A stretch of 64,000 bases of DNA from a virus (lineage: Duplodnaviria; Caudoviricetes), in IMG/VR virus record IMGVR_UViG_3300028364_000013. One strand, 5' to 3'. The stretch's first letter is position 1. Each line of letters begins with the position of its first letter. This document shows positions 6,628 through 53,688 of the stretch, piece by piece. The position numbers and the translations under genes were made by a program. The notes beneath the pieces are model-generated. The model saw only the letters and a list, made by a program, of their open reading frames with translations, had not been told where the DNA came from and ran no database searches.

Positions 6628-6994
6628 ATTCTTTTTTTATGATTTTTAATACACAAATATACGACAAATTTGTCAAAAATTCAATACTATTTTTTCTCTT
6701 TTTTCTGACAATATCTGTTGAAGCTTCCAAAGTCTTCGCTGATGATTTCGCACATCTTTACCTTGCTGATGTTATCAGTTTTCACACCTATGGAGTGAAG
6801 GAATTCTTTTATGACTTCAGTTCGTTCGCCTTTTGTCTTGAATCCTTTTTTAACCAAGTAGTTATTAACTCCGTTGCTTGGGTTTGACATCCCATTTCTT
6901 GAACTGTTACCCTCCATTGTTCTTGGATAACCGACTCCTGGTCCAATATATTCTCCTGTCTGTTCGTCAAGGATTCCATCAAGAATCATGTCTG

Positions 6995-7307
6995 CTATAT
7001 CTCCCATCTTGTAAATTTTATTGTTGTAACTTCATCTTCAAATGTTATTTCTGGATAGAATCTCTTCATCTGCTCCCACATGTCGTGATGGTCTTTTAAA
7101 TCCATCGTTCTGAAGGTCTCCTATGTATACGTTTGCCAACCTGCAGTAATGCACATTGATTACGTTTACAATCTCTTGTCTATTTTCTTCAACGCTCTCC
7201 AGCTTCAAGTCGCCCAACTGAATGTCTCTTCGACCTTTTCTTATGGTTGTTTGCTTCCCAGTTTCAAGGGCATCAAATATGTCTTCTGCTAATTTTAAAG
7301 TCTGCAT
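6995..7307 (-). pseudogene. ASCH-domain protein with a 1-nt frameshift (probably an assembly error)
   Basis: GKQTTIRKG motif. Removing one base of the run at 7094-7097 restores the C-terminus DGFKDHHDMWEQMKRFYPEITFEDEVTTIKF. Confidence 0.7.
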
Positions 7308-47857: not shown

Positions 47858-49858
47858 TTAACAACCATCGTTTAAGCTAATTAAATAATCTCCACCCTTT
47901 CTGTCTATGGAGCATCCTTCAACGTGAGTGAAATCATCAACACCACACTCTGGGCAAACAGTAAAAGAAGGCTTAGCGTAATTGTTTAAATACCCAGAAA
48001 GACCTCCTCTAAGAACTCTATCCATTGAATTCATTACAATAAAGTCAATTTCTTGTAACTCTGTTACTGAAGTTTTTGACACCACACCTTTCAATCTTTC
48101 ATACGTGCTATTACACGTTTCTACAAATAGAGAATCAGAATATTCCTTTAGGTTTTCAAGAGAATTTTGAATTGAACTCATGAGGCTGTCATTTGACACC
48201 ACAAATTCTGGAGCCTCTGATGTTGGAGTAACATATTTTTCTTCTACGAAAAAACTATGAAGATACTCAACTCTATCGCCATCAGACATTATAACCATAG
48301 CCATTAAGTGCTTTTGATAATCTTCTGGCCATACAACTTTGGCAAACTCAGGATTTAAAATTATATCCCAAGTAGAACCAATCTCAACTCCATCTGGAAG
48401 GTGCCACTTACCATTTACCATAGTAATTCCGCCTATTATCTTAGGGTTATTAATTGACATATAACCACCCTTGAAACCTTGGATTATTATGTTCTTTACT
48501 GTATGCAAATCTTCCATTATACTTTGAATTTATCTCTTTGTTCTAATTCTTCTTGCTCGATTACACTAACGCAATCTGCGCAAACAAAGATAGACTTTTC
48601 TATTGTCTTATCCAAAACTTTTACATATACTTTTCTAAATATGCCATTATAGTGTGGACACCTGTTTGGATGATACTTTTGAAACCTCCAGGTTGGTGGC
48701 CTTAACTTTAGCTTGTGATTCTCAACAAGAGGCTTATCCAGAGCTTCTCTTCTAATTTTGTTCATTAAAATCCTGGACACAAAAAGGAAGGCTAATGTTA
48801 AAAAACATAGCCCTCCAATAATTAGCAATATTAAAATGCCAACATCCATTAAAACAATTCCTTAAGAAGAGTCTTTCTATTTTTAAGGTCAGACTTGTGA
48901 CCAGAAAGAGCTTTCTTTGCCTTTTCAAGTTTGTAATCCGCATCATCAACATCTTTTAAGCTAAAAGGCATGCTAAACTTTGATGCCTCATATTCTTCTT
49001 CAGCTATCTCCACATCAGCTTCTGCTTTAACAATAACTCCTTCAAGTTTTGCAATTTGAACTCCCAATTCAGACTTTCCTGATTTTCCGTTTCTTTTAAT
49101 CTCCTTTTCTTTGTTACCAAGTTCTTCAAGTCTATTTTTTACTCCTTCTTCGTATTTCATAATTTATGATTTATTTGTTTTTATTTTCTAATAAGTAATT
49201 CTGATGAATATATTTTTCTTCTTTCTGGTTCTGTATCTTCTACTTTTTTTCTTACGATTAATTCGTCATCTTCCATAATTTTAATCGACATCGCTCCATA
49301 TCTCATAGCATCAACGTCAGATTCAAAAATGAAATCAGCCCTATCTCTATATTCATTGCCAATAATTTCAACACTTTTTTGTAAAGATTTTGCATCTACT
49401 ACAATAAAGTATTTATAATCATATGTATATGGAGCGTCAGTTGTAAAAGAAACTCTTTCGTCTTCACCAATATTATCAACAACGTATGTTTCTCCAAATT
49501 TACACCCTAAATATCTCCCTTCAGCTACGCATAATAGCGTATCTCCACTTTTTGGTTTTCTAAAAATAGAATGCTCATCTGATGGTCTTTTGGCTTTATT
49601 ATAATAATTATTTATTTCTTGATTAGATACTTTATAACCTTCAACTTTATCTTTTTGGTTAACTTCAGATATAAAACCATTTGATATAAATATGCACCCC
49701 CCATCTTTATTGTATCCAATTAAAAGTTTAACTCCATATTCAGGATGATTAGACTCTTCAATACAAGAAAAAGGCTGATATGGAAATTCATTATCTTCCC
49801 ACTTAGCAATACTTTCTTTGTAGTTTAACCTATCTGATTTTGGATAATGTAACTTCAT
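47858..49858 (-). other. Hypothetical CDSs (47858-48517, 48517-48849, 48849-49160, 49181-49858)
   Basis: Co-oriented ORFs downstream of promoter 49877-49905. Confidence 0.75.
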
Positions 49859-49904
49859 GCCTTTATGTTTATTAAGTTATACGATAATAAATTAAAAATG
49901 TTCT

Positions 49905-49938
49905 AAAAAAAAAGCAGTAAGTTAATTCTTACTGCTTT
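49905..49938 (-). terminator. Intrinsic terminator closing the RNA-gene cluster
   Basis: AAAGCAGTAAG/CTTACTGCTTT stem followed by a T run on the minus strand. Confidence 0.8.
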
Positions 49939-49939
49939 A

Positions 49940-50145
49940 TTCACTTACCCTAAGCTCGTGCTATCACAAGGTGGGCTCCACTAATCCTGGCGAATCAACT
50001 TCACAGCCTACACGTATCCTCTTAAACCTTCAATCAGGCAAGTATAGATACAATAACGGGTGCATCCCCGACCACTGCAGCAGTCACGCTACTTCATCCA
50101 TGTGTGGCACATTGGGAGGAGACTAATCCTCACACGTTTCATTTA
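49940..50145 (-). ncRNA. Unassigned structured RNA candidate
   Basis: Non-coding, visibly GC-richer than its flanks, with multiple hairpins. Confidence 0.45.
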
Positions 50146-50169
50146 ATATTGTGGAGAGGTAGGATTTCA

Positions 50170-51511
50170 TAATGTTTTTTGTCTGCGGAAACCCAATCAT
50201 CACGAAGTGTGGTTGGGATGAGCAGGCCTCTTTTTGTTAGTATACGACAAATATACAAAAAAATTTAATTAATTTCAAGTTTTCTTTTTTTTTATATATT
50301 TATAATAAAAATTGAGAGAAGTGATAACTTACTGCACAGAACTTATTCCAACAAACCCAGATGACATGAGCTTAATCATGAGCATCATGGAGGAATTTCG
50401 CTCTGTCGTTAATGAAGCAAGTCAAATTCAGTTCTCTAATCTTAAGGATTTAAGCGCACTCAAGGCATTGCATAACACTTTTTATCACCCAACAAGAGAA
50501 TCTCACCCTAATTTCCCTTCTCAAATGGTCATTCGTGCCGAGATGGAGTGCCTTGCATCATATAAAGCAATCAAATCCAACAAGCACAAAATATCGAGGC
50601 CATTCGAGAAACATAATCTCTCGATGAGACTTGACAAGAGACTTTATTCTCACGTCAAGGGCGAGCCAACGAAGATAAAGATAACAACCAAAGAAAAGAA
50701 GAAAGAATTCTCAATTGTCCTTTATCCGAAGCTTGAGGAATTAATGAGCAAGCATCAATTTGTTGACCCACTTATATTTGTTCGTGATGGCAAACTAATG
50801 ATTGCGCTGACTTTTGACAATGCAATTGAGCCTGTCAAGTCCACTCTTTGTCTTGGGGTTGACCTTGGCATCCGAAGGGTTGCTGCGCTTTCTGATGGCA
50901 GACTCATCATCGACAAAAAGTTTAACAAAGAAAAGAGAGAACTTCGATATAAGAAGAGGTGTCTCCAGTCCAAGGGAACCAAGAGCTCAAGAAAGCACTT
51001 AAAAAAGCTAAGGAGAAAAGAAAGAGACAAGAACAAGAATCAAACACATCTTGTTGCCAATGAAATCCTCAAGACAAGTGCAAATGTGATTGCGCTGGAG
51101 AACCTAAAGGGAATAAAGGCAAAGAAATATAAAACACAAAATAAAAATGGAGTGAGTCAAGTTCCGTTCTTCGAATTAAGAAGAGTTTTGACTTATAAGG
51201 CCGAGAACATGGGAAAACATGTTTGTTTGGTTTCGCCAGCATATACCAGTCAAATCGACTCTGTTTCAGGAATCCGAGAGGGTGAACGAAGAGGAGTTAG
51301 ATTTTATGCAAAGTCAGGCTTGGTATATGATGCAGACATTAATGCTGCAGTTAACATCGCTCGAAGGAGCAAACACCCCATCTCGCAAGGAAGCTTGCTT
51401 GACGGGCAGGGCGTTGTCAATCGCCCAATCGCATGTCAGCCCAAGACGACCATCACGGTCTGATTGGCATTGCAAGCCCATTCATCGCCTTGGCGTGGAT
51501 GGGTAATTGAC
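50170..51511 (+). mobile_element. Non-autonomous IS200/IS605-family (TnpB-only) element
   Basis: Left subterminal hairpin CCCAATCA...TGGTTGGG; right hairpin CCCATTCA...TGGATGGG followed by TAATTGAC; no tnpA. Confidence 0.8.
50312..51463 (+). CDS. tnpB: TnpB RNA-guided endonuclease
   Basis: RuvC motifs GVDLG, IALENL and DADINAAVNI; TTG start. Confidence 0.92.
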   Translation: MREVITYCTELIPTNPDDMSLIMSIMEEFRSVVNEASQIQFSNLKDLSALKALHNTFYHPTRESHPNFPSQMVIRAEMECLASYKAIKSNKHKISRPFEKHNLSMRLDKRLYSHVKGEPTKIKITTKEKKKEFSIVLYPKLEELMSKHQFVDPLIFVRDGKLMIALTFDNAIEPVKSTLCLGVDLGIRRVAALSDGRLIIDKKFNKEKRELRYKKRCLQSKGTKSSRKHLKKLRRKERDKNKNQTHLVANEILKTSANVIALENLKGIKAKKYKTQNKNGVSQVPFFELRRVLTYKAENMGKHVCLVSPAYTSQIDSVSGIREGERRGVRFYAKSGLVYDADINAAVNIARRSKHPISQGSLLDGQGVVNRPIACQPKTTITV

Positions 51512-51626
51512 ACCTACATTCTACTAAGGTACTTAAGTGCTCTTTTCCCTTTTCAACTCGTGGCTTTACAGGCCATGGTGTCTATGAATATTGCACCACC
51601 CTCCCGACATTTGACTGTCGTTGCTC

Positions 51627-52577
51627 TTAAATATCGTTCATCTGCTCTTCGATAATCTTACGAACATCTTCAGCAGTTGGTTTCTTATAAATTGGCCAAG
51701 AACACATTGAGCAGCTACAAACTTTCCCTGTGTGTCTCATCCAGATTCCAGATTCTCCAGACTGGACTTCTTTCCAGTAATCAGCCCAACAAAGATTATC
51801 ATTGTTTATACTATAAGACCAGCTCCAGTCATAATAATTTCTGGCTCTTCTCTTTAGATGAACCTCTTTTTTGTACCTACGGTACGCTCTTTTCATGTTT
51901 TTCATTTCTTACATTGTTATAGCTTGGTGTGCTTGAGTTGAGCACCAAGCTCATTACCTGTAAGAAATCTCTATTACTTTTTTCATTTTTATATTTTTTC
52001 AGCAAAACACAATACGTTTTCCTTATCTTTTCTTGATTTGTCTCCTTTTTCGTTGTCGAATCTAAAACCATTTCTGCTACTATACCACCAATCGACAATA
52101 GTATTAGATTTGTAGGCTTTGCTAAAAATAACACATTTGCCCTGCCACTTATCTTCTACATATTCCCAAAATTCTACTGGAGAAACAAGTTTATACATTT
52201 CACCACTATACTTAATAACAGAATCTTCACCATCCTTGTCAGACTTAACAGCATCAAAAAACACTTGACGCTCCTTGTAGAACACCTTCTTTTCTTTAAA
52301 TGTCTTATCTTTCCAACTCATATTATTTTATCTTGTCCTCTACGTATTTGCTTTGTTCTTCTTCAGATAGGTCAGAAAAAAACTGAACCGCTATTGCCTT
52401 ACCTTCAAGGATAAGTTTAGCCATTTTCTTTCTATCAGCTTTGGTTGTATATTCTTTATCATAATTTAAAGGTTTAGCTATTTGATAGCCTCTCAACATT
52501 TCGCCTTTAACATCAATTGTAAATTCACATTGATTTTCTGTTAAATCACCAATGTCATCAATTAAAATCGCCTTCAT
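51627..52577 (-). other. Hypothetical CDSs (51627-51905, 51989-52321, 52323-52577)
   Basis: Co-oriented ORFs between the tRNA genes. Confidence 0.7.
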
Positions 52578-52599
52578 AATACTTTTATTTTAAAAATTG

Positions 52600-52673
52600 T
52601 GACCCGTCCAGGATTCGAACCTGGGACCGCAAGTTTAGAAAACTTGTGCTCTATCCAACTGAGCTAACGGGCC
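52600..52673 (-). tRNA. tRNA-Arg(UCU)
   Basis: Canonical cloverleaf: GGCCCGT/ACGGGTC, D-arm GCTC/GAGC with A20, anticodon loop TTTCTAA, TTCGAAT T-loop; CCA not encoded. Confidence 0.95.
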
Positions 52674-52940
52674 GTCAAAATGACAATAAGATTGTTGGGT
52701 TTCCTATCTACGACTTCCACGTAGTTACAACGTACCACCCCTGTTTCCTAATGTCACTTTTTCCTTACTATCAGTTTTTCGGTCACAGAGCAAAAGCATG
52801 TCTTAAGTTACTTTTACTCCCCCTCAGTCTTATGTAAGTTAGACTGATATTTTAAATGTCAAAAAAGACAAGAAGTGTATGGCATAACATAAATAAAAAT
52901 AGGCTTCCTCAACTCCTATTAATACACTTCTTATCTATCG

Positions 52941-53013
52941 TGAATGTAACAAGAGTCGAACTTGCAACACTCCCCAACGGTTGTCGGGGCGCTTACCAAT
53001 AAGCTTTACACCC
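52941..53013 (-). tRNA. tRNA-like gene with non-canonical anticodon loop (unassignable)
   Basis: Acceptor GGGTGTA/TACATTC, D-arm GCTT/AAGC, T-arm GCAAG-TTCGACT-CTTGT; anticodon stem CCCCG/TGGGG with 8-nt loop ACAACCGT. Confidence 0.65.
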
Positions 53014-53133
53014 AGGTCCCAGTTTATCGTACTGGGGAACCAACATTAGACTGCAGACCTTAGTGTTGACAACGGGCAAGATTTAATTGAGTTCTCATTT
53101 GTGCTGCTATCCTGCCAGAAACGCACACGCTTT

Positions 53134-53688
53134 TTACATATTCGAAGCCCTTAATTGTTCTTCGTGAGTTTCTTTATTATTTTCTGCTATTAAAGTTGCA
53201 AGTTTCTTAGATTTTGCTTCGCATATGTCTACAAAAAAATCTTCATTGCTATCCCATGCTTCACCCTTAACTTTATTCATTATCAAATGAATTGATGCAT
53301 GTCTAAATATTGGATAAAATATTTCCCAATCAATATTGGCAATTTTCTCAACCTGCCACTTAATCCACTCTTCTTTCAAAAGTTCTTCATAAATAGTTTC
53401 CTCCTTGTTGGCCATATGTTTTCTAACAGCTCTTGCTCTAATTATCTCTCTTTCTTGTGAAGACATTTGCTTTTCCACTTCAAGGTCAATGTTAACTAAA
53501 TCACAACCTTCAAGTTCAAATTTCATCCTGCACCCACAATATTCATCATAAGTGTATTGGTCATCAACAAAATTGCTTAACAAAATATTAAGCAAACCCA
53601 TTTCTTTCTTAACAGACGCAGAGTGGTCAATGAAGTTTGTTTCAAGGTTGTTTTTAATATCTTCTTTTAAGTTTTCTATATCTGACAT
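53134..53688 (-). CDS. Hypothetical protein
   Basis: ORF preceded by promoter 53696-53724. Confidence 0.75.
   Translation of the reverse strand: MSDIENLKEDIKNNLETNFIDHSASVKKEMGLLNILLSNFVDDQYTYDEYCGCRMKFELEGCDLVNIDLEVEKQMSSQEREIIRARAVRKHMANKEETIYEELLKEEWIKWQVEKIANIDWEIFYPIFRHASIHLIMNKVKGEAWDSNEDFFVDICEAKSKKLATLIAENNKETHEEQLRASNM

Follow-up and report, generated by a model that had tools for sequence, protein, structure and literature searches.

A TnpB-only transposon inside a tRNA-like RNA gene of a giant lake phage, with matching uninterrupted alleles in related phages

Elements of the insertion sequence (IS) family IS200/IS605 carry TnpB, for which, as a rule, the sequence to the right of the element is the guide and the motif to its left is the transposon-adjacent motif (TAM; PMC13565253). 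TnpB-guided homing has been shown for sister chromosomes and, in its non-restorative form without TnpA (a TnpB gene drive), experimentally for plasmids, but for co-infecting phages it is theoretical (2026 review, PMC13565253, sections 5.3 and 6.1). Here, we describe a TnpB element that interrupts a tRNA-like RNA gene in the IMG/VR viral record IMGVR_UViG_3300028364_000013 (G000; 168,582 bp, estimated 72% complete) and whose empty site is found in related phages. TnpB-only forms of the IS200/IS605 family make up the IS1341 group. The window, that is, the whole stretch of DNA analyzed (64,000 nt), is the minus strand of G000:C1:40602-104601, and all coordinates refer to it unless a record or contig is named. 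The carrier is a giant lake phage; a protein identical to one of its neighboring proteins also occurs on a 364-kb contig.

With the ISDra2- and IS608-like OMEGA elements (short for obligate mobile element-guided activity), this element shares a RuvC TnpB with OrfB_IS605 and TNB domains, subterminal hairpins without inverted repeats, an insertion point 3′ of a 5-nt motif that is not duplicated, a structured RNA that overlaps the 3′ end of tnpB and runs to the right end, a right flank that serves as predicted guide, and a left-flank motif as TAM (PMC13565253). It differs from them in having no TnpA, in the clade-wide absence of the zinc-finger cysteines, in its giant-phage carrier, and in its insertion in a structured RNA gene. 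The TAM of ISDra2 is TTGAT and that of IS608 is TTAC; to our knowledge, the TTCAT found here is not among the TAMs of studied elements. As in non-restorative homing between plasmids, TnpB would cleave a replicon in the same cell at its orthologous empty site, which would then be repaired from the filled copy, whereas here the arrangement is known from a natural filled/empty allele pair alone. All sequence-level prerequisites of such homing hold at this locus: the element, the catalytic triad, the RNA scaffold, and empty alleles with TAM and guide match. We therefore consider it probable that TnpB and its omegaRNA cut the empty alleles of co-infecting relatives, or the site left after excision, and that repair copies the element in.

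Relatives and intact alleles were obtained by a pattern search of Joint Genome Institute (JGI) metagenomes and through homologs of the neighboring genes. A sequence-only reading of the window had proposed looking for the empty allele in relatives, and six metagenome contigs of related phages indeed carry the gene uninterrupted, in four distinct sequences (L032 = L035, L034, L043 = L044, and the more distant L018). On the minus strand, window pieces 51605-51512 and 50170-50149 tile these alleles with no base missing or duplicated, and the two halves hold a single private substitution. The empty site reads GGATTTCAT|ACCTAC on the plus strand; filled and empty alleles differ by exactly the element, which has neither a target duplication nor terminal inverted repeats. 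Because an A stands on both sides, 1 nt of the junction is ambiguous, and limits of 50172-51512 are equally possible. The earlier reading had allowed for an ambiguity of 1-2 nt and had removed 50170-51511, placing the junction 1 nt off; its central expectation, that removal joins GTAGG and CCTAC in a hairpin and restores a cloverleaf-like fold, is borne out with the element at 50171-51511. The empty site thus forms the predicted T-arm, except that the loop in the intact alleles has 8 nt (TATGAAAT) and not the 7 nt (TTGAAAT) first read. Similarly, the TAM, first read as ending in TTTCA, has to be corrected to TTTCAT or TTCAT on the evidence of the empty alleles and of the insertions of related elements.

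The true loop length explains why a pattern of the joined allele with a 7-nt loop gave no matches in JGI metagenomes; the T-arm pattern with that loop matched solely unrelated tRNAs and tRNA-like genes in IMG/VR, where the intact T-arm gave none. A search of IMG/VR for related loci with two neighboring proteins returned no relatives, both element flanks had no blastn match among GenBank phages, and a megablast of 10 kb found nothing beyond one 76-nt match. The filled junctions recur in independent samples (L016, and an X5 contig spanning 51443-51692). Contigs from four lake or salt-lake runs contained no join that skips the element, with some parts uncovered and with contigs being unable to reveal rare empty alleles.

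The boundaries are also supported by the family. Seven IMG/VR relatives (L025-L031; protein identity 56-88%) measure 1261-1351 bp between shared end motifs. Eight independent left ends are all preceded by TCAT (as TTTCAT, ATTCAT, or CTCAT), and the right ends of related elements close with TTGAC, yielding the pattern TCAT|...TTGAC|. In other lake samples, the loose ends of contigs diverge upstream of 50165/50166 into at least four contexts, which places the left boundary there. A Y1 transposase (PF01797) was not found in the 168.6-kb record, while control genomes do match, and we therefore classify the element as non-autonomous (IS1341-like). The element and its tnpB are single-copy in the genome; a search of the genome for orthologous empty sites of the L025-L031 insertions found none. 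Coordinates of all features are collected in Table 1.

Table 1 Features of the TnpB element and of the RNA gene it interrupts (window coordinates).
Feature	Position	Strand	Basis and remarks
IS200/IS605-family element, TnpB only (IS1341-like), non-autonomous	50171-51511	+	1341 bp; filled versus empty alleles
TAM / transposition target motif TTTCAT (core TTCAT)	50165-50170	+	Adjoins the element on the left; complement of the T-like loop
Left-end subterminal imperfect hairpin CCCAATCATCAC..GTGGTTGGG	50192-50217	+	Single-stranded DNA fold
tnpB	50312 (TTG)-51463	+	383 aa from TTG 50312; start more likely GTG 50321 by homologs
omegaRNA-like scaffold region	51312-51511 (5′ limit provisional)	+	Overlaps tnpB 3′ end, finishes at right end ...TAATTGAC; RNAalifold on 8 elements
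Right-end hairpin	~51476-51504	+	Single-stranded DNA fold
Predicted guide ACCTACATTCTACTAAGG	51512-51529	+	Right flank read into omegaRNA; antisense to tRNA-like gene
tRNA-like gene, 5′ part (positions 1-94)	51512-51605	-	Model R1 51493-51605, 119 bits, E 2e-26
tRNA-like gene, 3′ part (positions 95-116)	50149-50170	-	Collinear with L032/L034/L043; continues where 5′ part stops
L032-type empty site			TTTCAT + ACCTACATTCTACTAAGC

The predicted guide matches the uninterrupted alleles closely. In L032, L034, L035, and L018, TTTCAT is followed by a sequence that agrees with the guide at 17 of 18 positions, the sole mismatch (guide position 18) being a compensatory change of the extra arm of the RNA; L043 and L044 agree at 16 of 18, differing at positions 5 and 13. 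Within the genome of the phage itself, TTGAC and not a TAM precedes the full target, and the sole other 12-nt match likewise lacks a TAM. The proposed course of events would then be as follows. The insertion would inactivate the RNA gene, which appears dispensable since several relatives lack it. TnpB would carry an omegaRNA ending in 16-18 nt of the right flank and would recognize TTCAT plus that sequence, a combination found only in uninterrupted alleles, and the phage's own copy would be safe because the element separates TAM from target. Cleavage of the empty site would take place where a relative with an intact allele co-infects the cell, or where a transposase acting in trans has excised the element, and recombinational repair from the filled genome would copy the element in, amounting to restorative or non-restorative transposon homing. 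Homing into co-infecting relatives is thus plausible. The main value of the locus lies in this clean natural filled/empty pair in phages, together with a tRNA-shaped RNA: it brings together natural ingredients for a direct test of inter-phage homing, namely a transposase-less element with exact boundaries, a TAM (TTCAT), a guide, and several natural uninterrupted target alleles, one of them with guide mismatches.

The allele with guide mismatches (L043:1792-1907, and L044) has three private substitutions, of which two lie in the predicted TnpB target and two break pairs of the T-like stem. Either escape or plain decay of the copy could account for it; escape does not reach significance, since by chance two of three such substitutions would lie in the 18-nt target with a probability of about 0.065, for one allele. 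The same allele bears on a further explanation, in which TnpB would be a domesticated weapon, kept mainly to destroy competitors with the intact gene (exclusion), with copying as a side effect and L043-type alleles as escape variants. Such an escape would be in keeping with the mismatches at positions 5 and 13, which disrupt the T-like stem as well, but the same chance value for a single allele speaks against it, and exclusion and homing look alike at the level of sequence; we regard this explanation as extremely unlikely.

A further match to the target region occurs outside the window: a hairpin (GAATGTAGG-TATCTTTCAG-CCTACA; G000:C1:114250-114285) has 14 nt (TAGAATGTAGGTAT) in common with the T-like arm and 12 nt with the predicted guide target, with no TTCAT alongside. 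A second copy may have left it as a relic, or it may be due to chance (about 0.02).

The coding sequence points to a functional nuclease. TnpB matches OrfB_IS605 (PF01385; 31.4 bits) and Cas12f1-like TNB (PF07282; 49.5 bits) in Pfam, both over the cut-offs, and aligns to solved TnpB and Cas12f structures (PDB). The RuvC D/E/D triad is intact (motifs GVDLG, ALENLK, and YDADINAA) and conserved in all eight elements compared. The ratio of nonsynonymous to synonymous substitution rates (dN/dS) of tnpB is 0.21 versus L025 and 0.085 versus L026. RNAalifold on the eight elements predicts a scaffold of 39 pairs, 20 of which show compensatory changes, some of them within the coding region; that this covarying omegaRNA-like scaffold finishes at the right end agrees with the premise of the earlier reading that the omegaRNA derives from there. 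A search of 49500-53500 against Rfam at E<=1 found no omegaRNA family. The triad, dN/dS, and scaffold covariation together make it likely that TnpB is active.

Several points weigh against the homing interpretation and the cloverleaf assigned to its target. Cleavage, omegaRNA expression, and homing are predictions from sequence. No diverged phage was found with the element at the same site, and there is thus no footprint of past homing (the right end plus flank gave three chance matches in a coding gene in IMG/VR). The 168.6-kb record in which no Y1 transposase was found is itself estimated to be only 72% complete, and a longer contig exists. Covariation of the cloverleaf comes to one compensatory pair, a value reached in 115 of 500 shuffles, the alleles being too alike; moreover, L043 breaks the two T-like stem pairs mentioned above, and the different 5′ end of L018 weakens the acceptor-like stem. 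Lastly, all four zinc-finger cysteines of TNB are replaced (TSQIDSVSG ... RFYAKSG), here and in the seven relatives, and activity can therefore not be assumed from ISDra2. A zinc finger (CxxC...CxxC) in TNB is typical of the family but not strictly defining, and the conservation of the cysteine-less state across the clade argues for a variant and not for decay.

The cysteine replacement is also a ground for reading the element as a fossil, with a TnpB that would be catalytically or structurally dead and a locus that would be a decaying relic; such elements do decay in this genome, as a sister element reduced to its left end shows. Yet the cysteine-less state is common to eight elements of 56-88% identity, all full length with D/E/D, dN/dS is 0.085-0.21, and the RNA scaffold covaries. 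The single private substitution in the tRNA-like halves, furthermore, indicates that the insertion is recent or that its ends are maintained. We judge this fossil explanation very unlikely.

The main rival is that the element is a passive passenger: an ordinary IS insertion that survives in a dispensable RNA gene, with TnpB contributing at most restorative homing on sister genomes when TnpA of host or phage excises the element, and without meaningful spread between phages. The genome has 939 TTCAT sites, so that the motif is not special to the RNA gene; the surroundings of other family copies are unrelated and mostly coding or intergenic; a second phage lineage with an insertion at the same site was not found; and relatives without the RNA gene exist, showing that its loss is tolerated. 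Set against this, tnpB is under purifying selection although neither element nor record has a transposase, as expected if TnpB itself aids persistence or spread, and perfect TAM-plus-target sites are present in related phages from similar habitats. A passive passenger is accordingly possible, but doubtful. Under the favored homing interpretation as well, the simplest explanation for the "T-loop" position is that TTCAT lies there in a loss-tolerant gene, and dedicated targeting of tRNAs is not needed; the element is otherwise an ordinary member of a very common transposon family.

Tolerance of the loss is apparent from the slot flanked by the 92-aa and 225-aa genes, the content of which varies among relatives. 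Only the tRNA-like gene is present in L032, L034, L035, L043, and L018, a true tRNA-Arg in L020, only a terminator in L036 and L039, and, in L017 and L021-L023, only a 200-nt GC-rich RNA, which follows the tRNA-like gene in the window phage. The RNA gene is accessory, and this fits a phage lineage that survives with the gene broken. The GC-rich RNA (49925-50142, minus strand) lies between the tRNA-like 3′ end and a terminator and is conserved (L017:7720-7935, L021:4282-4500, L022, and L023); in relatives it begins at the stop codon of the upstream gene. It has seven predicted pairs with compensatory changes and no Rfam match. Relatives carry either it or the tRNA-like gene, and only the window phage has both.

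The interrupted gene itself is about 116 nt long when intact; it directly follows the stop-codon region of the 92-aa gene and is directly followed by a terminator in L032, L034, L043, and L018. The insertion leaves a 94-nt and a 22-nt piece separated by 1.3 kb, and the element is antisense to the gene. The 5′ part comprises an acceptor-like strand (GGGAGGG), a D-like arm, an anticodon-like hairpin (loop CUGUAAA), a 42-nt extra arm, and, at its end, the 5′ strand of the T-like stem (GTAGG) with the first loop base. The 3′ part supplies the remaining loop bases (ATGAAAT), the 3′ strands of the T-like (CCTAC) and acceptor-like (CTCTCCA) stems, and a CAA tail. The consensus fold of the gene has five arms: an acceptor-like stem of 6 bp plus a G.A pair; a D-like arm of 5-6 bp; a 4-bp stem (UGGC/GCCA) with loop CUGUAAA, invariant in all alleles; an extra arm with either AAGG/CCUU or AAGC/GCUU as its closing pairs (one compensatory change); and a T-like stem of 5 bp (GUAGG/CCUAC) whose loop (UAUGAAAU) has 8 nt. 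It is this last loop that the element interrupts, and the complement of the loop contains the TAM.

Two lines of evidence speak for a genuine gene of this shape. A cloverleaf matcher, with criteria set post hoc to the candidate, found three true tRNAs and one other site on both strands of the 168.6-kb genome and 0.8 matches per Mb of simulated sequence, a rarity which argues that the tRNA-like shape is not a chance product. A covariance model (R1) built from the intact alleles gives 98-152 bits for alleles in which the protein encoded next to the gene shares only 46-90% identity with that of the window phage, and four of five allele types are identical over the first 55 nt of the gene; this conservation indicates that the gene is real. 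A conserved, unclassified tRNA-shaped RNA in giant lake phages is thereby brought to light. Upstream of it (51606-51635, minus strand), the 30 nt before the gene hold a hairpin (GACAGTCAAATGTC) and are nearly invariant in L032, L034, L043, and L042 and replaced in L018; they may serve the RNA gene in processing or as a promoter.

The sequence-only reading had taken the gene for tRNA-Tyr-like, with a TnpB-only element in its T-loop. A Pfam-matched TnpB element does sit inside a T-like loop, but the gene is not recognizable as tRNA-Tyr by ARAGORN or Rfam RF00005. Its likeness to class II tRNA-Tyr consists in the CUGUAAA anticodon-like loop (U33, purine 37, GUA) on a 4-5 bp stem, a U at position 8, a 6-7 bp acceptor-like stem that abuts a 5-bp T-like stem, and the slot, where relatives carry true tRNA genes. 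The differences are the length of 116 nt (versus about 75-90), the 42-nt extra arm, the absence of C56 from the 8-nt T-like loop, a D-like loop (AAUAUUCAUA) without GG, the G1.A mismatch, and the lack of an encoded CCA. ARAGORN with default settings made no call on 144 joined sequences (junctions 50164-50175 x 51506-51517) and no tRNA call on the intact alleles L032, L034, and L035, and RF00005 had no match to the intact alleles at E<=1. Rfam identified only a tRNA-Arg (52600-52673) in the window at the gathering score and in 49500-53500 at E<=1. Relaxed ARAGORN settings did produce a tRNA-Tyr(gta) with a 34-nt "intron", which needs an 84% threshold that yields about 0.7 calls per kb genome-wide, and we rejected it. 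A canonical tRNA-Tyr is contradicted by the absence of ARAGORN and RF00005 detection, the 8-nt loop, the D-like loop without GG, and the 116-nt length. Given this limited resemblance, we name it a tRNA-like RNA gene and not a tRNA-Tyr gene.

Transfer-messenger RNA (tmRNA) was considered as well, since the relative L017 encodes SmpB, and was rejected: ARAGORN made no such call in the window, L017, or the intact alleles, Rfam gave no match, and in L032 and L034 the T-like arm is followed directly by the terminator, which speaks against tmRNA. The SmpB gene (L017:1660-2115) belongs to a close relative, whose neighboring protein is 90% identical; neither SmpB nor tmRNA was found in G000, and no tmRNA on the L017 contig.

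A 6-bp pairing between D-like and T-like loops is not established, because L018 has a different D-like loop and the same T-like loop. This pairing is part of a more far-reaching version of the homing interpretation, in which TnpB would act without any transposase as a functioning RNA-guided gene drive that converts intact alleles when giant phages co-infect a cell; L043-like alleles would have escaped by giving up stem pairing to gain guide mismatches; and the target would be an undescribed phage RNA class, a 116-nt five-armed tRNA mimic with a D-like loop (UUCAUA) able to pair with the T-like loop (UAUGAA). In this full form, we hold it to be unlikely.

Two other known systems place a mobile or selfish gene in a comparable setting. 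IStrons (a group I intron combined with an IS200/IS605 TnpB, e.g. CdISt1) likewise have a TnpB/omegaRNA element inside a gene, and there the interrupted gene could stay functional through removal of the element from the RNA. Here, by contrast, the left end is only 141 nt long, the element (plus strand) is antisense to the RNA gene (minus strand), and no Intron_gpI match was found at the gathering score or at E<=1. Without a group I intron and with the element in antisense orientation, its removal at the RNA level, which the earlier reading had allowed for, is unlikely. Phage T4 SegB and other free-standing homing endonucleases occur in phage tRNA gene clusters (PMC2330249, cited in PMC13565253). 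The feature in common is a selfish gene for a nuclease, located where a large phage has its tRNAs or small RNAs and expected to target co-infecting relatives without it; the nuclease here differs in being RNA-guided, in telling its target by the absence of the element, and in sitting inside rather than beside the RNA gene.

At the element ends, the 141 nt before tnpB and the 48 nt after it contain one imperfect hairpin each, of the same design, and the left-end architecture recurs with altered apical bases in L025, in L027, and in a solo copy in L002. The AT-rich stretch up to 50311, kept in other copies, probably holds the tnpB promoter. A stretch with the motif CAAATATA..AAA.AAATTTAA is conserved between elements upstream of tnpB (window 50240-50311, L002:1560-1636, and L025:~1420-1500) and is also present upstream of an unrelated 85-aa open reading frame (ORF) at the solo left end, which suggests a portable promoter. 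This solo left end, which derives from a sister element, lies outside the window (G000:C1:18779-18901 = L002:1490-1625) and has no matching right end in the genome. It is preceded by TTTCAT, equals the L025 left end up to the T-run, carries the 85-aa ORF thereafter in place of tnpB, and provides the final codons of a 165-aa ORF.

Uncalled tRNA-like genes are also found on other large-phage contigs (L008:~300-440, L010, and L013:~6880-7000). They have neither an ARAGORN call nor a match to model R1, are about 110 nt long, and combine the T arm GTAGGTTGAAATCCTAC, a 7-bp acceptor stem, and an encoded CCA, with about 85 nt separating the acceptor strand from the T arm.

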